Shown here in pieces: positions 4,077 through 40,000 of a stretch of DNA of 45,843 nucleotides. Under the pieces are notes generated by a model. That model was not told the DNA's origin and did no database searches. It worked only from the letters and a program-made list of their open reading frames with translations. Position 1 is the stretch's first letter; every line of letters starts with the position of its first letter. The stretch covers positions 1 through 45,843 of the forward strand of contig CAYMSW010000003.1 in NCBI GenBank assembly GCA_964393215.1, written 5' to 3'. The DNA is from Candidatus Woesearchaeota archaeon. Lineage in GTDB: Archaea > Nanobdellota > Nanobdellia > SCGC-AAA011-G17 > PNOQ01. The position numbers and the translations under genes were made by a program.

Positions 4077-5451
4077 GGTGCAATATCCCTACGAAAGCAT
4101 GGAGGTGGCTTTTTAGATCATAAAAGGACCGAAGGTTCTGGACACGGCTCAAGATATAGGCCGGGCGCAGGTAAAAATCCCTAAAGGACTGATCAAAATA
4201 ATGCTGGACCCTTTCCCTGGAAATGGATGGAAGGTTTAAAATGGCATGTGAAAGATCGTACCGTTGCCAATCAGTGTGAGCCAGCAATCCCTCGCTGAGA
4301 GCCCATTTATACATGGCGGTTCCTGGATAGGGTGTTGTGATATTATAGACAGCAAACTGGATTCCCATTTCTTTCGAGTAAGCCAGCGTTCGTTGGATAT
4401 CGTGGGTTGTTTCCCCCGGGCTTCCGAGCATAAATGCCCCGCGAACATCGATTCCGGCCTTCCGTGTCATTTCCGTTACGGCTATATAATCGATGTCCCG
4501 AATTTGTTTGTTCATAGTTTTGAGGGTTTTGTCGGCCGCAGCTTCAAATCCGTACATAATTTGATGGCATCCCGAAGCGGACATCAGTTTCAAAAGGTCG
4601 GCATTGATGTTGTCGACACGGGCAAAGCATGACCAGGTAATGTCTACGTGACGTTCAATAAGCAACTCACAAAGCATCTCGACGCGTTTACGATTGGTAG
4701 TGAATGTGTCGTCATAAAACGATATTTCCCTAATTCCGTAGTGCGTTTTTAGGAGGCGTATATGATCTATCACAATTTCCGGGTCCGTATACCGTATCTT
4801 TCGGCCGAACATTCCGGAGAAACAAAAGGTACATTGTCCCGGACACCCGCGTGAAGTAATCATACCAATGGAGGGGCTTCGCTTAGCGGCTCCCAAAGCA
4901 GAACGATAATACTGCATAGGCAAAAGATCGTAGGCGGGGTAAGGCAATTGATCAAGATCCACATTGTGCCCTGTATCCTCGTTGACTGTGATACGGCCAT
5001 TTTTGTCCCGCCAAGTGATGCCTGAAATGCTTTCCAGTGCATCACCTTCAGCCAGTTGGGCAATTGCCTCATCCCCTTCATTACGCACGACAATATCACA
5101 GACACCCTCTTCAACAAACTGCTGATGAAAAAGGGTGGGATGGACTCCACCGAACACGATCTTTACATGGGGATACGCGTTTTTAATACGGCGCGCCAGA
5201 AGAACAACGTTTTGGATCTCAACGGTCATGGCTGACATGCCAACGATGTCGACACCGGTATCGATCTGATGAAGTACCTTTTGGTCGGTAAGGTTTAGCG
5301 CATAGCCATCAATAACCTTGACAACATGGCCCCTTGCTTTGAGAATACCGGCAAGCAGGGCCAAACCCAGGGGAGGCATGACGGAGTGAATCTTATGCCA
5401 GATGTTTCCCTTGGCAAATCTACGATTCGGGTTGATTAAAATTATTTTCAA
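4054..5451 (-). CDS. Class B (cobalamin-binding domain) radical SAM enzyme
   Basis: N-terminal B12-binding-type segment (VDIVGMSAMT...KIVFGGVHPT), followed by the radical SAM cluster motif CPGQCTFC (CX3CX2C) in ITSRGCPGQCTFCFSG. TTG start 5451..5449; MKIILINP is a typical N-terminus for this family. It overlaps the downstream gene by 23 nt. Confidence 0.85.
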   Translation of the reverse strand: MKIILINPNRRFAKGNIWHKIHSVMPPLGLALLAGILKARGHVVKVIDGYALNLTDQKVLHQIDTGVDIVGMSAMTVEIQNVVLLARRIKNAYPHVKIVFGGVHPTLFHQQFVEEGVCDIVVRNEGDEAIAQLAEGDALESISGITWRDKNGRITVNEDTGHNVDLDQLPYPAYDLLPMQYYRSALGAAKRSPSIGMITSRGCPGQCTFCFSGMFGRKIRYTDPEIVIDHIRLLKTHYGIREISFYDDTFTTNRKRVEMLCELLIERHVDITWSCFARVDNINADLLKLMSASGCHQIMYGFEAAADKTLKTMNKQIRDIDYIAVTEMTRKAGIDVRGAFMLGSPGETTHDIQRTLAYSKEMGIQFAVYNITTPYPGTAMYKWALSEGLLAHTDWQRYDLSHAILNLPSISRERVQHYFDQSFRDFYLRPAYILSRVQNLRSFYDLKSHLHAFVGILHHVFQSQR

Positions 5452-17713: not shown

Positions 17714-18901
17714 TCAAAGCTTCAGTCTGGATTTGGAAGCAAGCGTCCAATCCATGATATGAGCGTTTTGGGAATCCACACCGAGCCAGTTAATGGACAT
17801 CCCGCAACATCTGCATTCTGGTACGATCTCGTTTCGTTTCGATTCCCTATTGGTTTCTCTCAAGGCTTTCCAAAACCGGTTGTTCCAAAAATCATCAATC
17901 GAATGCTTCAGTATATTGCCACTGTCGTATTGCCCAGTAGCCACTTTATTCATGAACAAGATTTCACCGGCAGCGCACGGGTAAAGCTCTCCCCCAGGAG
18001 CTATGAACAAAGATCGCCAGGGCTCTTTGCAATCGCGCTCCATAATGCAGTTCTGCCCGAATAAGGGCTGGTAATCCAGTTTCATATTTAACCTGTCAGC
18101 AAGTGCGATAGCTTCAGAAACCGCGAGATTGCTTTCCTCCTGATGAAAGTATAGGGAATCTTCGGGTGATATCTGTATGCTTCCATCTGCCTTTTGGCGA
18201 AATTCTTTGGGATATATGCGAACATATACTGCCTTAACGCCATCTATCCCAATGTCCGATGCCAACTTGATGAAGCTCCCTAACTCTCCAATGTTTTGTT
18301 TCATGAGAATTATAGAAATACTGATACCTGACATGGACCTTAAACGTCGCCGCAGTCGAACAAGTTCACGGATATGGTTACAAACTTGTGCAAAGGCGGG
18401 GATACCAGAGATTTGTCGATAAGTTTTTTCTGTAGCGGCATTCAGGGAAATTAGGAAATTTACCCTGTTTTCCAGCAACGTTCTGACCGTCGCTTCATCG
18501 AAAGCGATGAAATTGGTAATAACAGAGTGCGAAACAGTCGGACATCTTCTTCTGGTGAAAGCAGCGATTTCTGAGAGCTCTGGATTTAAGAAGGGTTCGC
18601 CCCCTCCGCCGTAGATCACCTCTATTAATTGATTTGCATCTAGATGACCGAATATTTTTTTTATTTTTCCAAGGGTTAATCTTTCTGCAGAACCACAGTT
18701 CCTGTAGTCGCTCCCGCACATAATGCAGGCCGAATTGCATGAATCGATCATCAACAGATTTAGGGACGATGGTCCGAAATTGATATCGGTGATACCTTTT
18801 CGGGCAGTTCTATTTAGCGTGAAATCTGTTCTTTTCATCCGGGCAAAACCCGTTCCTCTTGCTATCAACTCTCTAAATCCCATTATTGAACTATTTCTCA
18901 A
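17714..18901 (-). CDS. Radical SAM enzyme with C-terminal SPASM/twitch-type auxiliary cluster region
   Basis: CNSACIMC (CX3CX2C) in LLMIDSCNSACIMCGSDY. C-terminal CKEPWRSLFIAPGGELYPC (CX12GX4C), then PECRCCG. The TTG start 18901..18899 has GGAG 8 nt upstream. An alternative ATG is at 18883. Confidence 0.8.
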   Translation of the reverse strand: MRNSSIMGFRELIARGTGFARMKRTDFTLNRTARKGITDINFGPSSLNLLMIDSCNSACIMCGSDYRNCGSAERLTLGKIKKIFGHLDANQLIEVIYGGGGEPFLNPELSEIAAFTRRRCPTVSHSVITNFIAFDEATVRTLLENRVNFLISLNAATEKTYRQISGIPAFAQVCNHIRELVRLRRRLRSMSGISISIILMKQNIGELGSFIKLASDIGIDGVKAVYVRIYPKEFRQKADGSIQISPEDSLYFHQEESNLAVSEAIALADRLNMKLDYQPLFGQNCIMERDCKEPWRSLFIAPGGELYPCAAGEILFMNKVATGQYDSGNILKHSIDDFWNNRFWKALRETNRESKRNEIVPECRCCGMSINWLGVDSQNAHIMDWTLASKSRLKL

Positions 18902-27517: not shown

Positions 27518-28582
27518 TTATGATGCCCATCGTTCAGTTTGTCCCTGGAGAACCTCCTGCATAATGTCTCGTATGCCATACCGCATCGACCACTCAGGGT
27601 AATGTTTCCGGAATTTCGATACATCGCTGACCCACCAGATGTGATCTCCGGCTCGATTATCCCCCGAATAAGACCAGTTCAGTTTATTTCCTGTCATCTC
27701 TTCAACCATGGAGATGGCTTCCAACATGGAGCAGTTTGCATAACGCCCTCCCCCAATATTATAGACTTCTCCCGAGCGCGGATTATTGAATACATGCCAG
27801 AATCCATTAACAAGATCATAGGAGTGAATGTTATCACGGACTTGTTTCCCCTTATAGCCGAAAACCGTATATTTCTGACCAGTTAGCCCACATTTTGCTA
27901 GATATGCAAGAAATCCGTGAAGTTCAGCTCCCGAATGTCCAGGTCCCGTGAGGCAACCCGCACGAAAAGATGATGTTTTCATGCCAAAATATCTTCCATA
28001 CTCCTGAACAAGAATATCCGCAGCCACTTTCGATGCGCCAAAAAGGCTGTGCATACAAGCATCGATGCTCATGGATTCATCGATACCATGTTTAAAATAT
28101 GGATGGCTTTCAACAATTTCCCACCGTTTTTCTAGTTCGACCAGTGGCAATTGGTTGGGCGAATCTCCATATACCTTGTTGGTGCTGGTAAAAATAAAAG
28201 TAGCATTTGGACAGTACTTTCGTGTCAGTTCCAAAAGATTCAGGGTACCGTTTGCGTTAACCGTGAAATCCGTAATCGGTTCTTTTGCAGCCCAATCATG
28301 GCTGGGTTGTGCAGCGGTGTGGAGCACAAGGCCTATTGAAGTGGAGTATGATTTAAATATCCCTTCAAGCGATGCATAATCTCTTATATCCATATTTTCA
28401 TGTCTATAAAGCTTAAAATTGCTCTCCAGTTGCCGGCGACTCCAACTCGTACTGGCCTCTTTCCCGAAAAAGTATGCACGCATATCATTGTCAATGCCTA
28501 TAATGTCTATCCCTTTTTCAGCAAAAAATTTGACAGCCTCTGCGCCGATGAGTCCTGCGGATCCTGTTACGATTGCAAGCAA
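27518..28582 (-). CDS. Extended-SDR NAD-dependent epimerase/dehydratase (CDP-paratose/tyvelose 2-epimerase-like layout) with Phe in place of the catalytic Tyr
   Basis: Motifs: [18 protein letters not shown] (Rossmann GxxGxxG), [10 protein letters not shown], then [12 protein letters not shown] where the family has YxxxK. The TTG start 28582..28580 is preceded by AGGAGGG with a 5-nt spacer, which is strong support. Confidence 0.85.
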
Positions 28583-28754: not shown

Positions 28755-29573
28755 CTACGACCATGATAAATTTTCGTTCCAGCGATTATCTTTGATCAGG
28801 GAAGAATCCCGTTTGACAAAAAGGCATTCACCCTGTGCGGGCATTCCATCAAGGGGCCGACCATGTATACCGTATATGTCAAAAAGCCGGTATCCCCTGC
28901 CAGAGAGAAAAACCACGATTTCATCCAATAAAGGGATATCTTTTTGATACGGAAGTAAGGCGAACTCGAGTTGAATAAAATCTGCCCGGGCGACAGCATC
29001 AGGCGCACCTGTCAAAACGCTCAACTCGGCACCCTGTATATCCATCTTTATGATACCCGGTTTCGGGAAACCTGTCTGTTCGATAATATCATCGAGAGTT
29101 CTCATTTCAGACTCGATGACGGTTCCAAACGGTTCTCCCCGGGTGTTTCCATATAGAGAGCTCAGATGACCGTGGCACATAAATCTAGCCGTGCTGTTTT
29201 TATCGCCGACAATTGTTTTCACGAATTTGATGTGATCATCTCCGGCCTCTAATCTTGATAGTACTTCAGCGTTCTGCTCCAACGGATCGATCATGAGGAT
29301 ATCCACTCCAGGGTAGATTTCCCGCATCGGCAATGTCCACCTTCCATCTGAAGCACCTATATCCACAATGCTTCGAGGTGAATAGTTCAATTTGTTTTTT
29401 ATCCATTTGAAACGGTCAAGTGCTTCTATTTGAGACATGGCTGATAGCGGTACAATTTCTCCTGATGCCACCCATCGCCTTGTAATTTCAAGTCCGAGAA
29501 AGTGCAAATATGGGCTTACACGTTGCGAGAGAAAATCGATCAGTTTTCTTTTATAGGTCGTCTTTACCACCAT
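28755..29573 (-). CDS. FkbM-family SAM-dependent methyltransferase
   Basis: Motifs: IVDIGASDGRWTLPM and PGIIKMDIQGAELSVLTGA, the characteristic FkbM-family pair. ATG start. Confidence 0.75.
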   Translation of the reverse strand: MVVKTTYKRKLIDFLSQRVSPYLHFLGLEITRRWVASGEIVPLSAMSQIEALDRFKWIKNKLNYSPRSIVDIGASDGRWTLPMREIYPGVDILMIDPLEQNAEVLSRLEAGDDHIKFVKTIVGDKNSTARFMCHGHLSSLYGNTRGEPFGTVIESEMRTLDDIIEQTGFPKPGIIKMDIQGAELSVLTGAPDAVARADFIQLEFALLPYQKDIPLLDEIVVFLSGRGYRLFDIYGIHGRPLDGMPAQGECLFVKRDSSLIKDNRWNENLSWS

Positions 29574-29622: not shown

Positions 29623-31020
29623 CTACATATTGTTTCCGACATACTCGATCATACAGGCATTTACCAACCGCTCACAGGCTCGGCCGTCTAACTGTCCTAT
29701 TTCATCCTCGACAACTTTTCGACGCTCTACGATATGTTCATTGGGAGATGTCAGGGCTTGTCGAATCTTATTTTTTAGCTGGGTACGACTGGTTGCCGTT
29801 TTAATAGCGCCATATGACGCGAGCCTGCGGTTATGGAAGTTGGAGGCATGATCGAAATAGACCGGATGCCGTGCCAAGTTTCCCGTAGGAACCGGAAAAT
29901 ACCACATATATATCGTCGGTTTATCAAACATGCAGGCCTCAATGGCAATAGTAGAAAAAATATTGATGACACAATCACAGGAGGCTAAACTATTCCAAAG
30001 CTGATACTCCTCTATCTGCAGTACAGAACGCCCGCGATCACCGGCATTATAATGGGGATCAGCCAGGCTGACTGCGACGCCCTCAAGATTCCTGGCATAG
30101 GACAGTAAAGGTTCTAGATAAACCGATGCCATAAATTTTTTGTTAGGATAAAAACGAAATATCAACTGGCAATCCAGTCCCTCCCGCTGTAACTCCAAAA
30201 AACAATCCAGCATTTCAAAGTATTGGGACTCGTAGATAAATCCAGCAAAAAGGATCGTCTTGCGTTTCGGGTCAAGTCCAAGATCTTCAAGGAACCTGTC
30301 TCTTTCCATTAGTAAAGCTGGATTTACATTGTAGCGTATGGGACCTATTTCCGTTATGCGATTGGACGGGATGAAATGAATACGCTCTGCATCCTCCCGC
30401 ATGTTTTTCCCCCAGACCAGAAGCCTTTCAATTGGAATGCCCCGAAATCCTTTTGATGAAAGAATATCATAGTTGCCAACGATATGAATAACAGAAATCT
30501 TATGTCTTCTCCCCCACCACGTCATAAGCCCTTCAAGGTCTGAACTCGTAGAACCGACTCCCAGGAGCAGCAACTGGTCGATCTCTTCTGAATTGCACCC
30601 CTTCAGTATTGGATGTTTTCCTATGAGAAGTCCCTCAAAGACCGTTAATAACCTTATGAGGGGGTTAGAAAGTGCTAGGAGACAAAATAACCAATTCAAG
30701 ATCTTCCAGAAAAGAGAACTATCCAAATGTTGTCGGCGGAACCGTTCCCTTACCCCAGGATCTGTCGAAGGATAGCGCATACGGATATCCCTTGATAACC
30801 TTAAGAGTTTACCGCGAACACCTGAAAAATTTAGAAAATTCAGGGCCTGATATTCACAGCCGGGAATTCGCGTCAGCAGGCCCATGTAATCCTCACGCAC
30901 CAGGAAGATAATTCTAATGTTCTGTTTGACAAATGCGTGCACAACTTCTTTTCGATGCAGATGATTGGTGGCTCCCTTACCTAGCAAGGCGATGCCTAAA
31001 CAGTATTTCGGTAGATTCAT
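29623..31020 (-). CDS. Uncharacterised GT-B/TagF-like transferase (function unknown)
   Basis: 465 aa. The C-terminal part LWNSLASCDCVINIFSTIAIEACMFDKPTIYMWYFP resembles the ...D.lItdySS...E......P.I.. segment of CDP-glycerol glycerophosphotransferase / capsule-type GT-B enzymes. It lies immediately upstream of neuC. Confidence 0.4.
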   Translation of the reverse strand: MNLPKYCLGIALLGKGATNHLHRKEVVHAFVKQNIRIIFLVREDYMGLLTRIPGCEYQALNFLNFSGVRGKLLRLSRDIRMRYPSTDPGVRERFRRQHLDSSLFWKILNWLFCLLALSNPLIRLLTVFEGLLIGKHPILKGCNSEEIDQLLLLGVGSTSSDLEGLMTWWGRRHKISVIHIVGNYDILSSKGFRGIPIERLLVWGKNMREDAERIHFIPSNRITEIGPIRYNVNPALLMERDRFLEDLGLDPKRKTILFAGFIYESQYFEMLDCFLELQREGLDCQLIFRFYPNKKFMASVYLEPLLSYARNLEGVAVSLADPHYNAGDRGRSVLQIEEYQLWNSLASCDCVINIFSTIAIEACMFDKPTIYMWYFPVPTGNLARHPVYFDHASNFHNRRLASYGAIKTATSRTQLKNKIRQALTSPNEHIVERRKVVEDEIGQLDGRACERLVNACMIEYVGNNM

Positions 31021-31081: not shown

Positions 31082-32239
31082 TCAATAAGTGATCTGTTTT
31101 TGAATGTTGAATTCAAATTTTTTTAGGATTTCAACCATTTGGAGGCCAGCATTACCTTTTCCGTAAAGGTGATTTGGTTTGTATGCACCGTGTTCAACCT
31201 GTTTCAATACCGCGTTTATTATCAGTTCCCGATCGTAACCGACATCAATTACATTGGCGCAACGTTCTCTTCCATTCTGGCGTGATCCAATATTGACGGA
31301 AGGAACACCCATAAATGCAGTTTCGCGTATGCCACTGCTGGAATTTCCTATCAGGCTGGCAGAATTGTTTAGTAACGGTGCATAAAGCTCTATGGGCAGG
31401 CTTTTGAAGAAATGGATATAATCGATATTATCCTTTTCCCTAAGCATCCTTAACCCTTTGGATATCCCATCTGACCCAGCGTCCATATTGGGCCATATCC
31501 ATATTGTCTTCATTTTTAATTCGGTGACGGCTGCGATGGTTTCATTGATATGATCCAGATTCTGACGATACTCTGTGGTCACAGGATGCTGGAGTACTAC
31601 CAAATACGGGCTGCTCAAATCCACCACAGCCCCTACACCAGAGGTTTTCTGGAGTTCCGTCAGCTGACGGATGTCGGACAGGTCCAACTCCGCGATGACG
31701 TCAAGGCTGGTGGAGCCCACTGGGAAGATCGAATCGGGGGACTCCCCCATTTTTTCGATACGCCGGGCAGCGTCCTCGGTGGCCGGGAAGTGGAGATGGG
31801 CCAATTTGGTAATCGCATGCCGGATGCTCTCGTCGATGGAGCCGGACACCTCACCTCCTTCCACGTGGGCAACCGGTATATTCATATAGGCTGCTGTCAT
31901 GGCCACCGGCAGGCATTCAAAGCGATCGGCGATGACCACGACAATATCAGGTTTTAAATTCTCAAAAGCCGTGCTAAACTCTGAAACGGCCAACCCTGCA
32001 GATTTGGCCATAGTTACAGGATTCTCACCCTCCACCAGGAAATGAATCACGCGATCTATCGGGATCCCATTCTCATCAAATGATCTGGAGATATTGCCGT
32101 ATTTGGCTAGTATGGCACCGCCTCCGATGATGATCTGCAATTCCAGTCCAGGCTCGGCTCTGATGTGTCTGATGACCGATTTCATTTTGGCGTAATTCCC
32201 CCGTGTCGTTACCACGAGACATATCTTTATTCGTTTCAC
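31082..32239 (-). CDS. neuC: UDP-N-acetylglucosamine 2-epimerase, hydrolysing type (NeuC/LegG family)
   Basis: Motifs: KICLVVTTRGNYAKMKSV and HVEGGEVSGSIDESIRHAITKLAHLHF; the latter is the hydrolysing-type signature, compare E. coli NeuC HIHGGEKT...DEFIRHSITKMSKLH. The track start is GTG 32254. I prefer GTG 32239..32237 (VKRIKICLVV), which makes a GTGA overlap with the neuB stop and has GGGAGA 7 nt upstream. Confidence 0.85.
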   Translation of the reverse strand: MKRIKICLVVTTRGNYAKMKSVIRHIRAEPGLELQIIIGGGAILAKYGNISRSFDENGIPIDRVIHFLVEGENPVTMAKSAGLAVSEFSTAFENLKPDIVVVIADRFECLPVAMTAAYMNIPVAHVEGGEVSGSIDESIRHAITKLAHLHFPATEDAARRIEKMGESPDSIFPVGSTSLDVIAELDLSDIRQLTELQKTSGVGAVVDLSSPYLVVLQHPVTTEYRQNLDHINETIAAVTELKMKTIWIWPNMDAGSDGISKGLRMLREKDNIDYIHFFKSLPIELYAPLLNNSASLIGNSSSGIRETAFMGVPSVNIGSRQNGRERCANVIDVGYDRELIINAVLKQVEHGAYKPNHLYGKGNAGLQMVEILKKFEFNIQKQITY

Positions 32240-33264
32240 TTCAAATTCTCCCACTTAATCACTGTATCCATGTCCATATCTGTTTTAGTTATTTTACCGA
32301 TCACATCTTCCAGTCGGTCCGGGGAAATACCGGTTCCTGGCCGTTTGCAGCACAGCGTGTCCACTGTCAACACGTCCCCTTTTTTCACTTTGCAGGCTGT
32401 CACCACGCTTTTACGCGCCCATTTCAAATTGACCAGTTCCTCCGGCCCCGGATGCTTCACACCAGTCCCCATTCCCATTTCTATCTCACGAATTTGGCGA
32501 ACCATTTCAGGAAGGTCCGTTTTTCCGCAGGATACTTTCCAATCCTGGGCATTTGGAACATTGTAGTCGAGGGTGATATGCTTTTCAATGATGTCTGCCC
32601 CCATAACCGCCGCAGCAATAGGAAAATGAAATCCACGGGTATGATCAGAATACCCGGTTACGACTTTAAATCGATCTTTAATGGTTTCGATGGCGCGCAG
32701 ATTTACTTCAACTGCCGGTGTTGGGTATCGGGTCACACAATGCAACACTGCTATATCCGGATTACCAGCACTTTCAAAAATCGCAAGGGCATCATTGATT
32801 TGGGACAAGGTGTACATGCCTGTAGAGAGAATGACCGGTTTCATTCTCGACGCGATTTTCCTGAGATAGGCCCAGTTGGAAATGTCGCCGGATCCAATTT
32901 TGTACGCCGGGACGTCGAGATGGTCCAACACCTTCAGGCTGTCTTCATCGTGTGCTGTGGCCAGAAATGTGATGTTGTGTTCCTCACAGTAACCGGAGAT
33001 CTCACCAAAAGCTGCCGGAGGAAGTTCCTTCGGTTTCAACCGATCGATCCACTCCATCGAAGCTTTTGAGATCAGGCTTTCGGTCTGGAATATTTGAAAT
33101 TTGACAGCATCCGCCTTGGAAGATACAGCGAGGTCCACCAGTTGAAATGCCTTTTCTAAATTTCCGAAATGGGCCACGCCTGCTTCAGCGATGATATAAA
33201 CCGGCTGATCCTTTCCGATCAGCCGGTCATCAATGGTAAGATTGCACGAAAAAAAAGAGTCCAT
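32236..33264 (-). CDS. neuB: N-acetylneuraminate (nonulosonate) synthase, NeuB/LegI/PseI family, with C-terminal SAF domain
   Basis: Motifs: PVYIIAEAGVAHFGNLEKAFQLVDLAVSSKADAVKFQIF, GYSDHT, and a C-terminal SAF-like segment ACKVKKGDVLTVDTLCCKRPGTGISP. ATG start. Confidence 0.9.
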   Translation of the reverse strand: MDSFFSCNLTIDDRLIGKDQPVYIIAEAGVAHFGNLEKAFQLVDLAVSSKADAVKFQIFQTESLISKASMEWIDRLKPKELPPAAFGEISGYCEEHNITFLATAHDEDSLKVLDHLDVPAYKIGSGDISNWAYLRKIASRMKPVILSTGMYTLSQINDALAIFESAGNPDIAVLHCVTRYPTPAVEVNLRAIETIKDRFKVVTGYSDHTRGFHFPIAAAVMGADIIEKHITLDYNVPNAQDWKVSCGKTDLPEMVRQIREIEMGMGTGVKHPGPEELVNLKWARKSVVTACKVKKGDVLTVDTLCCKRPGTGISPDRLEDVIGKITKTDMDMDTVIKWENLK

Positions 33265-33355: not shown

Positions 33356-34087
33356 TCAAATCTCCTGAGAAAAAAAACGGATCGGAACATGTGGTAAGGA
33401 GACACATGCCGATTTCAGCAAAGCCTCTGCAATGGGTATGTCCTCCGGCTGATCCACGTCATACGCATAAGATCTTTCGATTTCGACGACCGCACAGGGC
33501 TCTGTATAAAAACTGCCGGTTTCCAGCAAGGCCCGTGTTCGAACCGCGATTAAGTTGCCAAAAGTGTAAAGTGAAGGTTTCATCTGTTTGTTATAAGCAG
33601 TATTTCTTTCTTCACGGTAAAGAAACCTGGCCCTGCCATTAACCTCCTCCCGCTGGTTCCACGCATGACTGTTATGAGAAACAGGCGTTATATTATGGCA
33701 GGATTGCGCTTCCGGATCATTCTCCAGGGCATCCAGTAACTGGGAAACATGCTCCGGCAGCAAGAAAGGGCTTGTTGGCTGTACAAGGACCAGGACATCG
33801 GGAATGGATGGACGATGCCGATTCAAAAAATCCAGTGCGACTTCACCAACGGGTATTTCATCTCCTGAAAGCTTTTCGGGCCTGAGATCGGCACCTGCAC
33901 CGAGGTCCTTTGCACACTTGAGGATGGCATCATGATCCGACGAACAGATCACCTTTTCCAACCGATTACTGGCAAGTGCCGCTCGAATACCGTACTCCAT
34001 CAACCGTAGCCCACAAATCGGAAACAGATTTTTCAAAGGGATGCTTTTTGAGCCGCCCCTTGCCGGAACAAATGCCCACGTTTTCAT
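33356..34087 (-). CDS. neuA: Acylneuraminate (nonulosonate) cytidylyltransferase, NeuA/LegF family; short form without a C-terminal esterase domain
   Basis: AFVPARGGSKSIPLKNL is the N-terminal signature of CMP-NeuAc/CMP-Kdo synthetases. 243 aa. ATG start with AAGGAAAG 4-5 nt upstream. It begins 11 nt after the stop of the B12-radical SAM gene. Confidence 0.85.
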   Translation of the reverse strand: MKTWAFVPARGGSKSIPLKNLFPICGLRLMEYGIRAALASNRLEKVICSSDHDAILKCAKDLGAGADLRPEKLSGDEIPVGEVALDFLNRHRPSIPDVLVLVQPTSPFLLPEHVSQLLDALENDPEAQSCHNITPVSHNSHAWNQREEVNGRARFLYREERNTAYNKQMKPSLYTFGNLIAVRTRALLETGSFYTEPCAVVEIERSYAYDVDQPEDIPIAEALLKSACVSLPHVPIRFFSQEI

Positions 34088-34098: not shown

Positions 34099-36177
34099 TT
34101 AGGCGGGGTGTGGAGACCTGAGAAACTTTTTGACATACGCTTTGCTCAGGATCCTGGCAATTCCCGCAGTATCATTGCCATACAGGGAAACCATTCGGCT
34201 GATCGTTTCCCGTTGCTCCCGGCTGTGCACAAATACAAAAGGTCTGGAACCACCCATGTCATAAGGGTCGATTTCCACCGGGTTGCGACCGTTGAGAAAT
34301 CCGGAGATATCGTAACGGAATTTCGTTACGATATCTTTCGGTTCCTCACTCCATAAATCTTTCATTCGGGCCGCGTCAAAAGCAACAGCATCATCCAGGA
34401 AACGAAAATAGGATTCCCCTTTCACTCCTTTGGATCTAAGGAGTTGGATGGCCGTGTCTTTCGCCGCTGTTTGAAGTTTATCCGCGTACAAACCCATGCA
34501 CTTGGATTTATAGGTAAACATCAAATTGTAGCCCATCTCTCCATCAATGTATCTCTCAATCACACCGGGTTGAAGGAGGAATTCTGCCAACTCCTTTTTA
34601 TCTCGCCACAATTCATTTTTCGTTTCGCACATAAACTCTGAAACTGGCTTTCCAAGTTCTCCTTCAGAGGCCGCTTCACTAAGCAATTCAAGCCAGGAAA
34701 AAATGGGTATGTCGATCAATTTTAAAAACTTCAGCAATGCTGAAAAGACAGAGTCGTTGTAAAATATGCCAATCATCAGGTGGACTTTCCGGCAATCCAA
34801 ATAGTCTTGGAAATTGAGGGTATTTGTCGCGACACAGATCTCCTCAATTTCAAAAGATTTCAGTGGGTGTTCTCCCAATTGGAATTTCCCAAAAGCACGC
34901 GGTAAAGCCCTGTAACGCGAGATCATACCGAATTTTTCCTTAACAGAACCGAAGGCGATCTCACTTCCCGGCAAAAGCATCAATTGATAGGGCATCACCC
35001 GCTTGAATCTCATCTCTATAAGGGCTGAAAGGGAATCGTAATGGGACTTTTTGGTTTCACCCGGCAGCCCTAGGATCACCTCACTATAGGAATTCGCATC
35101 CATCTCAGTAGCTTCTATTGCCAATTCCAATAATGCTTCTGTGGAAATATTCTGGCGTTTAATATTCGAAAGTACGTTTGGGTCCAGAGTTTGCACTGAT
35201 CCGGCAAGGCGCAGAGAACCTTTTAGCTGCTTTGCGGTTTCGAGAACCCTTTTTTTATTATTTTTCCCGGTGGCGACATTAATATACTCAGGAAACTTGG
35301 AGTCTTTTTTGATGCGCCCAATGGCTTCAGCCAATCGTACATCATCCGGATACATTCCGAAATTGGAATCGGCGATATTGAGATCTCTCCGGCCCTCCAG
35401 CTTCTCTTGGGATCTGACTTTATTGGCAATATACTCGATTTCCTCTGTTACTTTCTCCAATCCGTTGCTATGGACTTTCGAAAAATGGTTGTCACCCTCG
35501 ACGCAATAGGTGCAGCTAAACGGGCATCCCCTGTGCAGTTGTATGATTGGCAGCAGTTTGCCATCGAAAAAATCATCCAATTTACCATTAAGATAAGGAG
35601 ACGGAAATCCCGATAGGTTCTTGATCCTTGGGGATGCATCGGGTAAAATCGCACTCCCTTCCTTGTTAATACAATGGACGGAGGGAAGAGCCAAATTCTT
35701 AACCTTTTCAACGTTATCGTCAAACTCATGCAACGCTTCAATTAGACGGACTAGGGTTATTTCACCTTCAAATGTGATATAAAAATCGATTTCTTTCCGT
35801 TTTTTTAAAAATGATTCTCTTCCTATTTTTGAAACTGGATAGTTCGGACCGCCGAAGATGACGATTGTCTCCGGACAAATCTTTTTAATAATAGAGCCAA
35901 AGGTCGAAGATAGGGTGCTGTTCCAGATATAATTGCTAAAACCAATGATGTCAGGCGGCGATTCATTCTCCAGTGCAGATATTAATTTTTCCGGATATTT
36001 GAACAACTGTACTGGTTCGCTAAGCTTCAGGTGAGCCTCTGCATAAGCGGATAGGCACCCAATGGCATAAGGGACCAGTTCTGCGGAGATCTGCATCTGA
36101 GTATATGTCAGATCCGCCAGCCATATTTTCTTTTTGATGGTTTTTCTCTTTCCAGGAATCATAAATTCATATTTCAT
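34099..36177 (-). CDS. Class B (cobalamin-binding domain) radical SAM enzyme with a long C-terminal extension
   Basis: 692 aa. B12-binding-type N-terminus (DIIGFSNYIWN...IVIFGGPNYP), then CPFSCTYC (CX3CX2C) in IQLHRGCPFSCTYCVEG. The roughly 250-aa C-terminal region is unassigned. ATG start. Confidence 0.8.
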   Translation of the reverse strand: MKYEFMIPGKRKTIKKKIWLADLTYTQMQISAELVPYAIGCLSAYAEAHLKLSEPVQLFKYPEKLISALENESPPDIIGFSNYIWNSTLSSTFGSIIKKICPETIVIFGGPNYPVSKIGRESFLKKRKEIDFYITFEGEITLVRLIEALHEFDDNVEKVKNLALPSVHCINKEGSAILPDASPRIKNLSGFPSPYLNGKLDDFFDGKLLPIIQLHRGCPFSCTYCVEGDNHFSKVHSNGLEKVTEEIEYIANKVRSQEKLEGRRDLNIADSNFGMYPDDVRLAEAIGRIKKDSKFPEYINVATGKNNKKRVLETAKQLKGSLRLAGSVQTLDPNVLSNIKRQNISTEALLELAIEATEMDANSYSEVILGLPGETKKSHYDSLSALIEMRFKRVMPYQLMLLPGSEIAFGSVKEKFGMISRYRALPRAFGKFQLGEHPLKSFEIEEICVATNTLNFQDYLDCRKVHLMIGIFYNDSVFSALLKFLKLIDIPIFSWLELLSEAASEGELGKPVSEFMCETKNELWRDKKELAEFLLQPGVIERYIDGEMGYNLMFTYKSKCMGLYADKLQTAAKDTAIQLLRSKGVKGESYFRFLDDAVAFDAARMKDLWSEEPKDIVTKFRYDISGFLNGRNPVEIDPYDMGGSRPFVFVHSREQRETISRMVSLYGNDTAGIARILSKAYVKKFLRSPHPA

Positions 36178-36212
36178 TTTTCACAAAAAGATAACTGTTC
36201 AAAAAACAACAG

Positions 36213-36305
36213 CTAACAGGTTGAAGAAAAACAACCACCGCCCACTAAAACGATAATCTTAACCGCAATAATGGGAATGTACCGTTGAATCCCTTTCCGT
36301 TCCAT
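36213..36305 (-). CDS. Candidate small ORF (30 aa), hydrophobic peptide ending GGGCFSSTC; unproven
   Basis: My own translation gives ATG GAA CGG ... TGT TAG = MERKGIQRYIPIIAVKIIVLVGGGCFSSTC. The ATG (36305..36303) overlaps the TGA stop of the SPASM radical SAM gene (TGATG). A second in-frame ATG lies one codon upstream at 36308. No SD. It is too short to appear in the ORF track. Confidence 0.2.
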   Translation of the reverse strand: MERKGIQRYIPIIAVKIIVLVGGGCFSSTC

Positions 36306-37330
36306 CATTTCAGAGACCACTTTTTTGGTAGAAGTAATGATAGCCAAGGTTGAGCAGTCAATTGTTTACATGTAAGGCAGGGGCCACTCTTCATCGACCA
36401 GATGGCCATTTGTCTACGCCATTTGAGGAAGCGCTCCGAACCATATATGGACAACAAATTGCCACCCGAACCATTTGAATGACCTATGATAAACTTTTCA
36501 TGTTGATCAAGATCACCACGCAAGTTACAGCATGGCATGACTGTGCCATCATAATCCATTGTAAAGTTGTGAAAAATCTGCATGCATGGTGACGTTCTCT
36601 TGAAATCTTTGTCACGAAGATCGGTCAACGTTCCTCCACGATCAAAACCCTGTTTACCGTAGTTTACGCAATTGGTCGTTATTGACATCGATACTCCGTA
36701 CAATACCGTGGAAAGGGAATTTTTTTCCACGTATAAATCACCGCACTTCAAACCAAGCTTTCGGGCAACTCTGTCGATTTTCTCTTCTGCCAACCTCTGA
36801 TTCCAGTTTTGTTGTTTGCCGAGGTAAACACTAATATGTAAACGATTCAATCCCTTCTTTGCCAATTGGCCTAGTAGTGCTTTATCGAGAAAATCTCCAT
36901 TGGAGATAATCATGGTGGTCGCTTTCGGGCAGATCTTTCTTGCAAGTGAAATCATCTCAAGAATCATCTCTGGCTTATACAGCGGTTCCGAGTATCTTGA
37001 AAAACGGATCTGTCCTGCATAATCCATATCCGCAAGTTGATGCAAACAACTATCATAGAGTTCCATTGGGAAAAAGTCACAATTATTATTTTTGTGACGC
37101 GCCACCAAAATATTCGAACAGAAATCACAGTTTCTGTTGCAATAATTATGAGGCTCTAGTTCAAAAATCCGTATATGACGTACAAATGTCTCTGATAGGC
37201 GTTTTTCATCCAAATTGTCTTGGAATAGGCTTTTATCTTTTAGTTCTCTATGGAAGCTATTCCATATTCGCCAGTGATCCAATTTGGACAGAAAGGTACT
37301 TTTCATTCGAGTTATAATGTTTCTTGTCAT
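36305..37330 (-). CDS. Radical SAM enzyme with C-terminal SPASM/twitch-type auxiliary cluster region
   Basis: CNRNCDFC (CX3CX2C) in LEPHNYCNRNCDFCSN. C-terminal CMQIFHNFTMDYDGTVMPC (CX12GX4C), then GPCLTCKQ. ATG start. Confidence 0.8.
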   Translation of the reverse strand: MTRNIITRMKSTFLSKLDHWRIWNSFHRELKDKSLFQDNLDEKRLSETFVRHIRIFELEPHNYCNRNCDFCSNILVARHKNNNCDFFPMELYDSCLHQLADMDYAGQIRFSRYSEPLYKPEMILEMISLARKICPKATTMIISNGDFLDKALLGQLAKKGLNRLHISVYLGKQQNWNQRLAEEKIDRVARKLGLKCGDLYVEKNSLSTVLYGVSMSITTNCVNYGKQGFDRGGTLTDLRDKDFKRTSPCMQIFHNFTMDYDGTVMPCCNLRGDLDQHEKFIIGHSNGSGGNLLSIYGSERFLKWRRQMAIWSMKSGPCLTCKQLTAQPWLSLLLPKKWSLK

Positions 37331-37377: not shown

Positions 37378-38613
37378 TCATAATTGTTTCAATCCGATCT
37401 CATTTGGCATAGAAAATGAAAGTGGACTATTAGCAGAACCTTCTATTTTCTCTTCTAATGAAGTAAGATTTACTTTTTTTAAAAAACTGCCCGGTTGTGC
37501 ATTTCTGATAATGTCAAGCACACACCGCGCCATAAAAACTTCGCTGGGATGCATGCCGTCAAACATACACGTATCCTCCATTTCATAAAAGGATGGGTCA
37601 ATTGCAGCAATACATGGTATTTGATTTTGCATTAGAATCTTTGGTAACTCCTTTTTGTATTTTTTCCATACATTGCTCGTGTGTTTGTTACTTTCTAGTT
37701 CTTGTAACACTTCCGTTGAAAAAGGCGGCATAAAAGTATAAACTTCAATTCCTTTTTTTGCTAATGAATTAAGAGAATCAATCAAGACGCTAATGAGAAT
37801 GGGGTCCGGTCCTGTCAAATAGCCAGGTCTCTTTACACGAACGATGACCGGTGGTACCTCTCGGTCCCTATAAAATGGATTAGTAATGAAATCTAATAGA
37901 ATCTTAGGATCATACTGTCTACTACCATCCGAACGGAATCCTCTACCCTCTTGAATTGCTGCAATTCCGATGGAAGGAAAACCGAAATAAGGAGATTTCG
38001 ACCTCCAGCCTTTAAAAACGGCATCCCAGGGTACATCTTCCTGTTTACGTATGAAATTCAAACCAATTCTGAGGTGATCTGTAAATTCTGGCAACCAGTC
38101 CAGGAACTGCCATTTTTCAAACCTGTTCTTGGGAGACCGCATTTTGTTGAACCACCATGGATCTATTCCAAGGATAACCACTTTAGGTTTGTGATTTTTT
38201 CCGGTAGTAATATATTCGCAATATGATTTAAATTCGTATACATTTCGAACCAATCCACCATAATTATAGACTACGTGCTCAAGCGGGTTAAACATAAAAT
38301 CACGAACCTGCATAACCCTGGAACTGCCCAATACAACAATATCCGCATGTTTATTTTTTAGAACTTGTCTTTTATAATAGAAAAAATTGTGTGAAATATA
38401 CTTTCTACCATATAAAAATTCTTTCATTCCCATTTGCTTAAATGCGACAAGAGCCACCGGCCATGATTCACCGGTCCTGAAAAGTGAAAATTCAAATAAT
38501 CCAATCAAAACAAAAAGTGGGAGAAAAAAAACTGAAACTCTGACGCTGAAATTAAACAGCCCATGTTTTTTAGAATTGGAAATAGATAAATGGGACATTA
38601 TTCGAAACACCAT
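37378..38613 (-). CDS. DltD-like membrane-anchored SGNH-type acyl-transfer protein (partner of the MBOAT)
   Basis: N-terminal TM (VRVSVFFLPLFVLIGLFEF). Motifs: DIVVLGSSRVMQV (compare DltD YGSSEL), VVILGIDPWWFNK (compare B. subtilis DltD VSPQWFNKKG, from memory), and C-terminal FDGMHPSE (D..H). The start is ATG 38613 or 38598, and either overlaps the MBOAT 3' end by 44 or 29 nt. Confidence 0.55.
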   Translation of the reverse strand: MVFRIMSHLSISNSKKHGLFNFSVRVSVFFLPLFVLIGLFEFSLFRTGESWPVALVAFKQMGMKEFLYGRKYISHNFFYYKRQVLKNKHADIVVLGSSRVMQVRDFMFNPLEHVVYNYGGLVRNVYEFKSYCEYITTGKNHKPKVVILGIDPWWFNKMRSPKNRFEKWQFLDWLPEFTDHLRIGLNFIRKQEDVPWDAVFKGWRSKSPYFGFPSIGIAAIQEGRGFRSDGSRQYDPKILLDFITNPFYRDREVPPVIVRVKRPGYLTGPDPILISVLIDSLNSLAKKGIEVYTFMPPFSTEVLQELESNKHTSNVWKKYKKELPKILMQNQIPCIAAIDPSFYEMEDTCMFDGMHPSEVFMARCVLDIIRNAQPGSFLKKVNLTSLEEKIEGSANSPLSFSMPNEIGLKQL

Positions 38614-40000
38614 ATTTAAGAATCAGGGCAATTATCATATAATAAATGAACCACCTGACCCACAATGGCAAATAGGCTATATCTAGGCCATGTGCACGTT
38701 TTCTGTTAACCCATTCAATACCAAACAATAAAATTGATGATAGAACAAACTGTCTTGTGGGTAGTGATACAATATCCCATCTTCCATCTACTAGGCGATT
38801 GAGCATTCCTGTGGCTTGACTCATTGTCTGTGCTCGAAAAAAAATCCAGGCAAATGTAACGAAGGTAAAGGTGATGGTGATTTGGCATAGTTCTCTTAAG
38901 GATGGTATTCCTGTTTCCTCAGCAACAACATTGGAATGCCCGTAAAAACCTGGAATTAAACGAAATGTGAAATATAAAGTACCATGAATCAGTCCCCATG
39001 CGATAAACGTCCAATTCGCGCCATGCCAAAGTCCACTCACGCCGAATGTTATTAATACGATTCCAATCCATCTCAATCTTCCCACTCTATTACCGCCGAG
39101 CGGAATATAGACATAATCGCGGAACCAGGTTGAAAGAGATATGTGCCATCTCTGCCAAAATTCAGAAAGACTTCTAGCGAAATAGGGATTGTTAAAATTT
39201 CTACGAAGGTTAAAACCCACTAAACGGGCAGATCCAATGGCAATATCTGAATAACCTGAAAAATCACAATAAATCTGAACCGCAAAACAAGAAGAACCAA
39301 TAACAATATCCAAACCACTCAGATCGTGATAACCCTCGAAGGCCAATTCAACAAATACTGACAGGTTATCGGCGATTACCGTTTTTTTAAAAAGCCCCCA
39401 CAATATCTGTCTAAGACCATCTTTTGCATGGGAAAGATTAAATTTGCGTTCACATTTGAATTGAGGCAACAAATGTTTGGCACGTTCAATAGGCCCGGCG
39501 ACTAATTGGGGGAAAAAAGCAACAAAGGCAAAGAAAGCCAATGGATCTCTCGTTGGTTTAATTTGCCGACGATAAATATCAATTGTATAGCTCAGGGTTT
39601 GAAAAGTATAAAAACTGATCCCAACGGGAAGAATTATATTCAACGAGGGGATATTTGGCTCAATACCTGCCCGTGAAAGAAGTTGAGCAAATGAATTTAC
39701 GAAAAAACCAAAATATTTGAATATGAATAGGAGGCCTATATTTACGGAAACGCTAATCAACAAAAGCAATTTCCTTTTTGGGGATTCAATTTCATTTTCC
39801 AGTTTGATTCCAATGATATAATCGGTCACAGAGCTTATTAATATTAAGCTTAAAAAACGAGGATCCCACCACCCGTAAAAGACATAGCTGGAGAAAAGAA
39901 TAAACGCATTTTGTATTTTAACTGTCCTATACTGGATCAACCAGTAAACAATGAACACAATCGGCAGGAAAATTGCGTATGCGATAGAATTGAAATACAT
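38570..40000 (-). CDS. MBOAT-family membrane-bound O-acyltransferase (AlgI/DltB/PatA-like)
   Basis: MYFNSIAYAIFLPIVFIVYWL is a typical N-terminus. It carries the invariant-His motif FWQRWHISLSTWFRDYVYIPLGGNR and is multi-TM throughout. ATG start. Confidence 0.9.
   Translation of the reverse strand: MYFNSIAYAIFLPIVFIVYWLIQYRTVKIQNAFILFSSYVFYGWWDPRFLSLILISSVTDYIIGIKLENEIESPKRKLLLLISVSVNIGLLFIFKYFGFFVNSFAQLLSRAGIEPNIPSLNIILPVGISFYTFQTLSYTIDIYRRQIKPTRDPLAFFAFVAFFPQLVAGPIERAKHLLPQFKCERKFNLSHAKDGLRQILWGLFKKTVIADNLSVFVELAFEGYHDLSGLDIVIGSSCFAVQIYCDFSGYSDIAIGSARLVGFNLRRNFNNPYFARSLSEFWQRWHISLSTWFRDYVYIPLGGNRVGRLRWIGIVLITFGVSGLWHGANWTFIAWGLIHGTLYFTFRLIPGFYGHSNVVAEETGIPSLRELCQITITFTFVTFAWIFFRAQTMSQATGMLNRLVDGRWDIVSLPTRQFVLSSILLFGIEWVNRKRAHGLDIAYLPLWVRWFIYYMIIALILKYGVSNNVPFIYFQF

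Follow-up and report, generated by a model that had tools for sequence, protein, structure and literature searches.

CMP-Neu5Ac is made in Escherichia coli K1 and Neisseria meningitidis by the canonical NeuC-NeuB-NeuA pathway. Among radical SAM enzymes, Fom3 (fosfomycin) and GenK (gentamicin) are class B methylases that act on a CMP-linked substrate and on the carbinol carbon of an aminosugar, respectively, and both are precedents for methylation at a hydroxyl-bearing sp3 carbon. TokK and ThnK (PDB 7KDX, 7KDY) carry out carbapenem C6 alkylation, TokK belonging to an antibiotic cluster and working on a pantetheinylated carbapenam. CysS (cystobactamid; PDB 9N1B-D) and KedN5 perform iterative C-methylation at an sp3 carbon. 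BtrN, the 2-deoxy-scyllo-inosamine dehydrogenase of butirosin biosynthesis (PDB 4M7T), and SpeY convert an alcohol to a ketone on carbohydrate-like substrates. The initial annotation of the DNA studied here knew of no radical SAM enzyme assigned to a nonulosonic acid (NulO) pathway, and in the library we searched no paper connects radical SAM enzymes to the synthesis of nonulosonic, legionaminic or pseudaminic acids.

The window analysed is a whole contig of 45,843 nucleotides. Gene calls and spacing were verified in a block between 29.6 and 37.3 kb, where every gene lies on the minus strand. The block contains a neuA-type CMP-nonulosonic acid synthetase (cytidylyltransferase; 33356..34087; PF02348, CTP_transf_3, 73.4 bits; 100.5 bits against the PseF model, below its cut-off), a neuB-type nonulosonic acid synthase with a SAF domain (32236..33264; PF03102 241.8 bits, SAF 30 bits; 344 bits against TIGR03569, whose cut-off is 399.65, and 218 bits against the PseI model) and a neuC-type hydrolysing UDP-GlcNAc 2-epimerase (31082..32254; TIGR03568 396.6 bits, above the cut-off of 235.9; PF02350 245 bits). 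Downstream lies a 465-aa BFO_1060-like GT-B protein, a candidate nonulosonic acid transferase (29623..31020; NF046086 46.1 bits, below cut-off). Upstream of neuA are two radical SAM genes: B12L (34099..36177), which encodes a 692-aa cobalamin-type (class B) enzyme, and SPASM1 (36305..37330), which encodes a 341-aa enzyme of the twitch type; the public gene call starts SPASM1 eight codons later (ATG at 37306), giving 333 aa. The surrounding minus-strand genes provide context only. They include an FkbM-family methyltransferase downstream of the BFO_1060-like gene (28755..29573; PF05050 61.5 bits, TIGR01444 71.5 bits), possibly involved in glycan O-methylation, an unassigned 411-aa protein directly upstream of SPASM1 (37378-38613) and its partner, a DltB-like MBOAT protein (38570-40000; MBOAT 94.6 bits; DltB model 159.7 bits, below cut-off). 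About 37 genes of the whole window are glycan genes; among them are six or more methyltransferase domains and another two radical SAM genes.

The spacing first reported for these genes was confirmed. The B12L stop codon lies 11 nt before the neuA ATG (TAA-AGGAAAGCATT-ATG), and the ORF coordinates place SPASM1 127 nt upstream of B12L, on the same strand as neuA, neuB and neuC. The AAGGAAAG motif ahead of neuA overlaps the B12L stop codon. The claim that no terminator-like structure interrupts the genes held only in part: a bacterial-type scan was negative at both junctions, but the minus-strand spacer between the radical SAM genes (36178..36304), which also encloses a 30-codon ORF, contains an AU-rich 8-bp hairpin followed by CUUUUU, as well as T5 and T6 runs. 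Folding of this gap was not significantly different from that of shuffled sequences (z -1.65), and a terminator that is weak or of archaeal type remains possible.

Composition sets the contig apart from the rest of its genome bin: its GC content is 44.2% where the core contigs have 33-34%, and its tetranucleotide correlation is 0.79 where theirs is 0.97-0.99, so its true host and the supply of cobalamin are undetermined. No homologs of B12L, of a GT-C fusion protein or of a DprE1-like protein were found in 40 relatives from the same genus, family and order. These observations, together with the T-runs and weak hairpin in the 127-nt gap, leave room for a mis-binned or recently imported island whose arrangement is functionally meaningless here, the radical SAM genes being either not expressed with neuABC or deprived of their cofactor. 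We consider this highly improbable. Every ORF is intact, the catalytic residues are invariant, and a 73%-identical homolog is present on other contigs; a foreign origin is in any case no argument against function in the true host, and the 11-nt junction, in the absence of transcript data, implies coupling of at least B12L and neuA.

In B12L, Pfam detects a Radical_SAM domain (45.7 bits) and a sub-threshold B12-binding domain (24.3 bits, cut-off 32.1). The best NCBIfam model is that of the KedN5 family (NF033712; 161.5 bits over residues 30-420), a score so far under the 700-bit cut-off that membership of this family was ruled out. By phmmer, B12L matched TokK (1.1e-34) and CysS (1.2e-29), and these were also the only strong sequence matches in the PDB (profile E 5.3e-59 and 6.2e-50, respectively). 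The best full-length structural matches of the AlphaFold2 model (pLDDT 86) in Foldseek were again TokK (TMq 0.71, about 670 columns) and CysS (TMq 0.67), whereas TsrM and OxsB were far weaker (E 1e-13 to 1e-14, TMq about 0.45). About 250 C-terminal residues, originally regarded as an unassigned extension, turn out to be the C-terminal domain of TokK and CysS, as the model aligns over about 670 of its 692 residues. Identity to TokK is low, at roughly 20-30%.

Across 25 homologs, the CxxxCxxC motif (C218/C222/C225) and W85 are invariant, and W85 aligns with TokK W76, the Trp that lies under the corrin in radical methylases. At the position of TokK W215, between corrin and cluster, the B12L family has an invariant Glu, E227, and in this it resembles the non-radical enzyme TsrM more than TokK. 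The evidence obtained here extends to the fold, the motif for the cluster and the Trp that faces the corrin. By structural type B12L falls with TokK and CysS, and it is probably a cobalamin-dependent radical SAM C-methyltransferase; this activity and its mechanism we infer from characterised relatives, with the substrate and the target carbon undetermined.

The same features bear on whether B12L, while belonging to the nonulosonic acid pathway, might use its cobalamin and radical SAM chemistry for something other than radical methylation, for example an OxsB-like rearrangement or ring contraction, cyclisation, or methyl transfer by a non-radical route of the TsrM kind. E227 replaces the Trp of both TokK and CysS in a region where TsrM is also polar, identity to the methylases is low (about 20% across the structural alignment), and the chemistry of class B enzymes is varied (reviewed in PMC12931638). 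Two iterative C-methylases are nevertheless by far the best matches, well ahead of TsrM and OxsB, the invariant residues include the corrin-facing Trp that radical methylases typically have, and the unexplained published natural products differ by an added carbon. A non-methylase B12L seems to us quite improbable.

SPASM1 matches the Pfam domains Radical_SAM (32.7 bits) and SPASM (23.0 bits). Its family profile detects BtrN (4m7t) with an E value of 2.7e-32 and the single sequence does so with 4.3e-16, the C-terminal Cys positions being aligned. BtrN is also the top Foldseek match (E 1e-12, TMt 0.73) of the structure model (pLDDT 89), and conserved residues comprise a CNRxCxFC motif plus C241, C259/C260 and C310/C313. 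SPASM1 is a BtrN-like twitch radical SAM enzyme; its fold, together with the conserved cysteines of the auxiliary cluster, leads us to infer that it is probably a sugar secondary-alcohol dehydrogenase.

The B12L family is large and unnamed, with 2,052 clusters at E<=1e-30. A lack of conserved synteny with NulO genes had been named beforehand as an outcome that would refute the proposed connection, and such synteny was found: neuA, neuB or neuC lies within 10 kb of a family member at 45 of 78 loci, with at least 12 phyla represented and gene order varying, and at 28 of the 41 loci whose flanks reach 8 kb or more on each side. At 19 loci neuA is the closest NulO gene, at 17 neuB and at 9 neuC, at a median distance of 1.3 kb and on the same strand in 39/45. 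Bacterial loci come from Pseudomonadota, Myxococcota, Thermodesulfobacteriota, Saccharimonadota, Parcubacteria, Omnitrophota, Nitrospirota, Acidobacteriota, Bacteroidota, Actinomycetota, Planctomycetota and Cyanobacteria, and one locus comes from an Asgard archaeon. One gene order, NeuB-NeuC-2-hydroxyacid dehydrogenase-NeuA-SQD1-like-B12L, recurs across phyla. The association was also examined at the genome level, with 301 species sampled evenly from a single alphaproteobacterial order. NeuB is encoded by all 34 species that carry the B12L family, compared with 217/301 (72%) overall, and the two genes lie within 10 kb of each other in 13 of the 34 carriers (about 1.5% expected by position alone) and within 20 kb in 19. 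Cultured organisms that carry the family include Thalassospira lucentensis DSM 14000.

The link is not universal. An HMM-based count found NulO genes at 50 of 79 B12L loci, and no NulO-type gene in the flanks of the other 29. The B12L of the window groups with P0002 in a 12-row subclade, and NeuA, NeuB and NeuC are absent from the flanks, several of them truncated, of all six loci in this nearest subclade (L003, L011, L012, L015, L016 and L045). Neighbours there include a methyltransferase, a class I/II aminotransferase, a formyltransferase, a GT2 and a heptose-type kinase/nucleotidyltransferase, so the substrates of the B12L family may include other higher sugars. It is possible, although in our view unlikely, that the radical SAM enzymes of the window tailor some other sugar or lipid-linked glycan intermediate of the same surface glycan (candidates being a heptose, a hexosamine and an O-methyl group that one of the many methyltransferases installs), and that adjacency to neuABC merely reflects a shared glycan island. 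The abundance of glycan, methyltransferase and additional radical SAM genes in the window fits such an explanation, as does the extension of O-methyl groups by the closest named relatives, CysS and KedN5, which is in part established knowledge. Against it, the NulO link is tighter than membership of a glycan locus, given the short median distance and frequent adjacency to neuA, neuB or neuC; one gene order is kept across phyla, NeuB accompanies B12L in every carrier genome of the sampled order, and just 11 nt separate B12L from neuA in the window.

Conserved synteny with NulO genes was likewise found for the small SPASM1 family. Among 80 metagenome loci, many of them shorter than 5 kb, neuA occurs in 17, and a homolog of the 465-aa BFO_1060-like transferase also occurs in 17, usually immediately upstream of the SPASM1 homolog. 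The order in these loci is ABC-NeuB-(NeuC)-NeuA-MT-MT-MT-BFO_1060-like GT-SPASM1-GT4, and in L121 and L099 the SPASM1 homolog has an MBOAT homolog as its neighbour. No other locus examined contained both radical SAM families (0/78 B12L loci and 0/80 SPASM1 loci).

The initial annotation had inferred a radical modification of the nine-carbon sugar or its precursor, and this gains support from the two folds, a C-methylase of the TokK/CysS type and a dehydrogenase of the BtrN type, which agree with the C-methylation and oxidation it proposed. Our best reading is that a CMP-nonulosonic acid, or a precursor of it, undergoes C-methylation and also a radical oxidation; in the absence of substrate, product or transcript data, we give it an even chance of being correct. 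The block would then be a tailoring and activation module for a nonulosonic sugar within the 45-kb glycan locus. Judging from family membership, NeuC, NeuB and NeuA would convert UDP-GlcNAc, PEP and CTP into a CMP-activated nine-carbon sugar. The [4Fe-4S] cluster of B12L would cleave SAM to a 5'-deoxyadenosyl radical, which would abstract a hydrogen at an unactivated sp3 carbon of the sugar. B12L would be likely to act on the nonulosonic acid, free or CMP-linked, or on the hexosamine from which it is made. The substrate radical would gain a methyl group from methylcobalamin, to be regenerated by a second SAM, and methylation could be repeated, as in TokK and CysS. SPASM1 would most likely oxidise a secondary alcohol to a ketone on the same sugar or on the acceptor sugar, and the BFO_1060-like protein is inferred to move the modified sugar onto the glycan. 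The conserved neighbourhoods of both enzymes in many unrelated microbes point to an undescribed, probably carbon-methylated, sialic-acid-like surface sugar.

A product class of the kind expected from nonulosonic acid C-methylation has been detected at the CMP-sugar level in Magnetospirillum gryphiswaldense, which has CMP-linked ulosonic acids with a C10 backbone marker (Kleikamp 2020, PMC8157484; SugarBase preprint 10.64898/2026.04.20.719630). Neither source proposes a gene for these acids, and the word 'radical' is absent from the SugarBase preprint. The B12L family is common in Alphaproteobacteria related to Magnetospirillum; the name itself does not appear among the 120 best matches listed in either homolog search. 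The C10 acids fit the C-methylation reading, with membership of the B12L family in this organism not shown.

Among described enzymes, TokK/ThnK is the best match of B12L in both sequence and fold. TokK (681 aa) and B12L are alike in length and share a three-domain architecture, in which a Rossmann cobalamin domain at the N-terminus is followed by a radical SAM barrel carrying CxxxCxxC and then by the C-terminal domain, but the B12L family is found in surface-glycan and nonulosonic acid clusters. CysS is the second-best structural match, and CysS and KedN5 differ from B12L in their setting, since they extend aromatic O-methyl ethers in natural-product pathways. The Fom3 substrate is cytidylylated by a neighbouring cytidylyltransferase, which parallels the adjacency of B12L and neuA, although the pathways of Fom3 and GenK are different and related P-methylase models score only 34-46 bits against B12L. 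SPASM1 shares with BtrN the radical SAM core, a C-terminal twitch domain and the aligned positions of four cysteines, but it is about 90 residues longer, has an N-terminal helical extension, lacks an adjacent partner aminotransferase and adjoins a putative nonulosonic acid transferase rather than lying in an aminoglycoside cluster. As in the canonical CMP-Neu5Ac pathway, the window has neuC, neuB and neuA, and here they are contiguous. It departs from that pathway in that two radical SAM genes precede them and NeuB remains under the equivalog cut-off, and the window lacks neuD, neuS and any known sialyltransferase family, their place being taken by the BFO_1060-like protein.

The 45.8-kb window is a single contig, nearly all of which is a glycan locus on one strand (minus). 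In the direction of transcription, the block carrying the two radical SAM genes opens with a DltB-like MBOAT gene (38570-40000, minus strand, as are all genes listed here), followed by a gene for an unassigned 411-aa protein (37378-38613) and, third in order, by that of a 341-aa radical SAM/SPASM protein, SPASM1 (36305-37330). A gap of 127 nt separates the latter from the gene of B12L, a radical SAM protein of 692 aa that matches the B12-binding model weakly (34099-36177), and a gap of 11 nt separates B12L from neuA (33356-34087; PF02348, 73.4 bits). The nonulosonic acid (NulO) genes neuB (32236-33264; PF03102, 241.8 bits) and neuC (31082-32254; TIGR03568, 396.6 bits, which exceeds the cut-off) come next, then a gene for a 465-aa BFO_1060-like GT-B protein (29623-31020) and, last of the block, an FkbM methyltransferase gene (28755-29573). 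Gene calls and domain matches were rechecked, and the coordinates, spacings and domain calls of the initial annotation proved correct; its observation that two radical SAM genes lie directly upstream of neuA, neuB and neuC on the same strand is confirmed. The start of SPASM1 is ambiguous (37306 versus 37330), the public gene call using the second ATG and giving 333 aa.

The rest of the window contains many glycosyltransferase and methyltransferase genes. It also encodes a second SPASM radical SAM protein of 395 aa (17714-18901, minus strand) and a second, shorter class B radical SAM protein of 465 aa (4054-5451, minus strand), the B12-binding match of which is strong (77.9 bits). Relatives of this short B12 enzyme, ~30% identical, occur in 14 of 79 loci of the B12L family.

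At the junction of B12L and neuA, the motif proposed as the ribosome-binding site of neuA shares bases with the stop codon of B12L. A scan for bacterial promoters and terminators returned no site at either junction, and its total over the whole window was not above that of shuffled sequences. The 127-nt gap does not fold significantly better than shuffled sequences. This gap contains an AU-rich hairpin followed by CUUUUU, and most of it is taken up by a 30-codon ORF (36213-36308, minus strand).

All three of the NeuC-type 2-epimerase, the NeuB-type synthase and the NeuA-type cytidylyltransferase are present in the window, with NeuB below its equivalog cut-off. A search of the 45.8-kb contig, which does not cover the rest of the true host genome, turned up neither a DegT-type aminotransferase nor a PseB/LegB-type gene.

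Sequence comparison identifies only two relatives of B12L with solved structures, TokK (E 1.1e-34; profile, 5.3e-59) and CysS (1.2e-29; profile, 6.2e-50). The AlphaFold2 model of B12L (pLDDT 86) matches TokK with a TMq of 0.70-0.71 and CysS with a TMq of 0.67, ~670 of its 692 residues being aligned, while TsrM, OxsB and MgmA trail far below these two as fold matches. The Foldseek alignments with TokK span 669-687 columns of the 692-aa model. Since the structural alignment is close to full length, the C-terminal ~250 residues, which had been regarded as unassigned, correspond to the C-terminal domain of the TokK/CysS type. At the other end of the protein, the Rossmann-type cobalamin domain matches the fold of TokK and CysS from about residue 20 on; the Pfam B12-binding model scores 24.3 bits on B12L, below its cut-off of 32.1, and PF02310 is precomputed in most homologs.

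The cluster motif C218-x3-C222-x2-C225 (CxxxCxxC) is invariant among 25 aligned B12L homologs and aligns with the motif of TokK and CysS. W85, invariant in the same alignment, matches the position of TokK W76, a hydrophobic residue under the corrin that is typical of radical methylases (2026 review, PMC12931638). The position of TokK W215, between corrin and cluster, is occupied in B12L by E227; this Glu is likewise invariant, and the criterion of a hydrophobic residue at this site is not met. A polar residue there has been noted only for TsrM, a non-radical methylase (PMC12931638). Judged from sequence, E227 in place of the Trp of TokK and CysS may reflect a mechanistic difference.

More than 3,000 proteins share words with B12L, and a profile search (E<=1e-30) collected 2,052 clusters at 50% identity, mostly of ~680-720 aa. 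Membership of the KedN5 family (NF033712) was rejected, the score being 161.5 bits against a cut-off of 700 and the match covering only model positions 11-398 of 624. As KedN5 is the sole NCBIfam model on offer and is missed by so wide a margin, the B12L family is uncurated.

The initial annotation had named conserved synteny with NulO genes as a check on its proposal that both radical SAM genes serve a radical modification of the NulO or its precursor. A pattern scan with one genome per species yielded 79 B12L loci with flanks of up to 10 kb, in which NulO genes were sought by tblastn with the window proteins. NeuB was detected in 38 loci, NeuA in 34 and NeuC in 28; at least one of the three accompanies B12L in 45 of 78 loci, and in 28 of the 41 where both flanks reach at least 8 kb. 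The median distance from B12L to a NulO gene is 1.3 kb, the two are on the same strand in 39 of the 45 loci, and neuA is the most frequent closest NulO neighbour (19 of 45). With HMMs made from the loci themselves, a NulO-type gene was recognized in 50 of the 79. The linked loci represent 12 or more phyla, among them CPR lineages and one of Asgard archaea, and their gene orders vary. For B12L, the check therefore comes out in favour of conserved synteny. The family also occurs in archaea beyond Asgard, and its named cultured carriers are Thalassospira lucentensis, T. lohafexi, Pelagibius sp. 7325 and Desulfobacca acetoxidans.

Among the gene orders, NeuB-NeuC-2-hydroxyacid dehydrogenase-NeuA-(UDP-sulfoquinovose-synthase-like SDR)-B12L is seen repeatedly in Alpha- and Deltaproteobacteria, and parts of it are also found in Saccharibacteria. 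This module, in which the dehydrogenase is PGDH-like and the SDR scores 458 bits with NF041015 (cut-off 575), was noted in loci L026, L037, L038, L039, L017, L042, L049 and others. Its composition hints at a sulfonated or otherwise C6/C9-modified NulO. The window has neither the 2-hydroxyacid dehydrogenase nor the sulfoquinovose-synthase-like SDR of this module.

A second test, independent of peptide patterns, was based on 301 evenly drawn species of the order containing Thalassospira. The B12L family profile (E<=1e-100) matched in 34 of the 301 genomes, ~11% of species in that alphaproteobacterial order. NeuB is present in every one of the 34 carriers, versus 217 of the 301 genomes across the sampled order. 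The distance between B12L and NeuB is <10 kb in 13 of the 34 carriers, compared with ~1.5% expected by position alone (~2.5 NeuB copies per 3.6-Mb genome), and <20 kb in 19. These two counts are lower bounds, the two genes being on separate contigs in 12 assemblies. No p-value is given, because kinship makes the genomes non-independent.

In a maximum-likelihood tree, the window's B12L pairs with its closest homolog, to which it is 72-73% identical, and both fall inside a subclade of 12 rows. None of NeuA, NeuB and NeuC was found in the flanks of the six loci of this subclade, three of which end <2 kb downstream, the place that neuA takes in the window; two others, L011 and L012, extend 10 kb downstream without NulO genes. 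The neighbours in the subclade are glycan genes, comprising methyltransferase, class I/II aminotransferase, formyltransferase, GT2 and Wzt, as well as a GHMP kinase and a nucleotidyltransferase/HAD of heptose type. Within the window, the evidence for a link of B12L to NulO is the 11-nt junction with neuA. Taken as a whole, the family fits best a role in the tailoring of higher sugars in nucleotide-activated form, most commonly NulO. Separately, in L012, from a marine thaumarchaeote, the B12L homolog is followed by a gene (2853-3491) whose product joins an Fe-S assembly domain to a PqqD-like (RRE-type) domain, an unusual partner for a sugar-tailoring enzyme.

SPASM1 belongs to a small family (19 word-sharing matches). 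BtrN is matched by the family profile at E 2.7e-32 and by the single sequence at 4.3e-16. The core CNRxCxFC is invariant, and BtrN residues 26-143 align with SPASM1 at E 5.6e-14. Also invariant are C241 and C259 (CX12GX4C), C310 and C313, which the second HMMER domain pairs with cysteines of BtrN. BtrN (4M7T) is likewise the top Foldseek match of the structural model (pLDDT 89; E 1e-12, TMt 0.73), with MoaA, SpeY and anSME well behind. The Pfam SPASM match, at 23.0 bits, passes its cut-off of 21.5, and only five C-terminal cysteines are conserved, whereas the full motif has seven; these five appear to fit a twitch-type half-SPASM better than a full two-cluster SPASM. No partner aminotransferase adjoins SPASM1 in the window.

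The neighbourhoods of SPASM1 were studied in 80 metagenome loci, many of them <5 kb. NeuA was found in 17 of these loci, NeuB in 10 and NeuC in 8, and conserved synteny with NulO genes, which had been put forward for both radical SAM families, thus extends to SPASM1. In 17 of the 80 there is a protein homologous to the 465-aa BFO_1060-like one of the window, usually encoded directly upstream of SPASM1, and the usual arrangement is ABC-NeuB-(NeuC)-NeuA-MT-MT-MT-GT-SPASM1-GT4-MT. In one marine metagenome locus, L099 (CEVA01000828.1, 7846-15000), a SPASM1 homolog (36%) is accompanied by a short B12 radical SAM gene, an MBOAT homolog (40%) and a homolog, 71% identical, of the epimerase-like protein of 354 aa in the window (27518-28582). 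L099 is probably a relative of the window's island.

No SPASM1 homolog was found in the 79 B12L loci, and no B12L homolog in the 80 SPASM1 loci. Each family therefore neighbours NulO genes on its own and, as far as these gene neighbourhoods can tell, the two are not conserved as a pair. The SPASM genes that are frequent in B12L loci (cluster c7, 16 loci) belong to a different family (~20% identity).

The genome bin that holds the window, derived from marine metagenomes, comprises 0.8 Mb, is 86% complete and has an archaeal SSU rRNA. The GC content of the window's contig is 44.2%, versus 33-34% in the core contigs, and its tetranucleotide correlation with the rest is 0.79, versus 0.97-0.99 for the core contigs. 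Homologs of B12L, of a DUF2304::GT-C fusion and of a DprE1-like protein were not found in 40 relatives from the same genus, family or order. The contig is either an imported, foreign island or mis-binned, and the assignment of the locus to an archaeon is therefore unsafe. Shine-Dalgarno usage in the contig (27%) is near that of the core contigs and does not separate the two explanations. Other contigs of the bin are atypical as well: C11, C16, C20, C22 and C12 have a GC content of 38-47% (C12, 23%) and tetranucleotide correlations of 0.6-0.9, and in C11, C16 and C20 Shine-Dalgarno motifs precede 80-90% of long ORFs, versus ~25-35% in core contigs. These five are probably contamination of the bin. 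Contig C7, which is compositionally typical, has a separate NulO set (L165, G000:C7:12001-24438) with NeuB (398 bits), NeuC (377 bits), a PseF-like cytidylyltransferase, two aminotransferase-like genes, a CysN-like GTPase and a 369-aa twitch/SPASM radical SAM gene; a B12 radical SAM gene stands at the start of the same contig (L164, 1-1174).

The synteny was observed directly, as were both folds, their cluster motifs, the Trp facing the corrin and the cysteines of the twitch domain; the reactions are inferred from characterized relatives. By analogy with TokK, CysS, Fom3 and GenK, a 5'-deoxyadenosyl radical formed by B12L would take a hydrogen from an sp3 carbon. The enzyme would then donate a methyl group from methylcobalamin, possibly repeatedly, the methyl transfer itself being an inference. 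SPASM1, if it acts as BtrN does, would convert a secondary alcohol to a ketone by means of its auxiliary cluster, and here too catalysis is inferred. Genomic context suggests that the substrate may be the NulO, its CMP form or a hexosamine precursor; Fom3 shows that class B methylases can act on a cytidylylated substrate. C9 (with chain extension), C3 and the methyl of the N-acetyl group are all chemically plausible as the carbon attacked. The interpretation offered in the initial annotation, a radical modification of the NulO or its precursor, has thus gained conserved synteny and fold support, and none from chemistry or transcripts.

Our literature searches retrieved no paper joining radical SAM and nonulosonic, and nothing tying these radical SAM enzymes to legionaminic, pseudaminic or sialic acid or to neuB. 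A review of these cobalamin-dependent enzymes from 2026 makes no mention of a sugar, CMP or sialic compound as a substrate (PMC12931638). Mass spectrometry has revealed ten-carbon ulosonic acids in Magnetospirillum gryphiswaldense and Methanococcus, with no gene proposed (Kleikamp 2020, PMC8157484). The SugarBase preprint of April 2026 shows these acids to be CMP-activated, with a marker of a C10 backbone for which O-methylation cannot account, again without proposing a gene (10.64898/2026.04.20.719630). C-methylation by the B12L family would explain C10 acids, a bold reading rather than a finding, since a member in M. gryphiswaldense has not been shown. No protein named from Magnetospirillum appeared among the best 120 matches of either the window's B12L or a Telmatospirillum homolog, only a quarter of the proteins being named. 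We regard it as possible, though doubtful at present, that this ~700-aa family supplies the enzyme so far missing for extension of the carbon skeleton in sialic-like sugars, C-methylating a CMP-NulO or a precursor once or repeatedly to give the ten-carbon (possibly larger) 'decu-losonic' acids of M. gryphiswaldense and Methanococcus, and that it forms, with BtrN-like oxidases, a radical branch of sialic-type chemistry that is widespread among bacteria and archaea.

NulOs cap flagella, S-layers, capsules and LPS, and thereby influence surface charge, the adsorption of phages and recognition by the immune system. If the proposal is true, a cobalamin radical SAM step adds carbon to the NulO skeleton and a radical dehydrogenase adds a keto group. 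The B12L family is a concrete gene candidate for the orphan ten-carbon CMP-ulosonic acids, and the idea is testable in the cultured carriers. To our knowledge, all described diversification of NulOs relies on acyl-, amidino-, O-methyl- and epimerase-type enzymes, and we know of neither a carbon-adding radical SAM step nor a radical dehydrogenase step described for this class. B12L and SPASM1 are enzymes of known kinds, standing in a pathway where such enzymes have not been described before.
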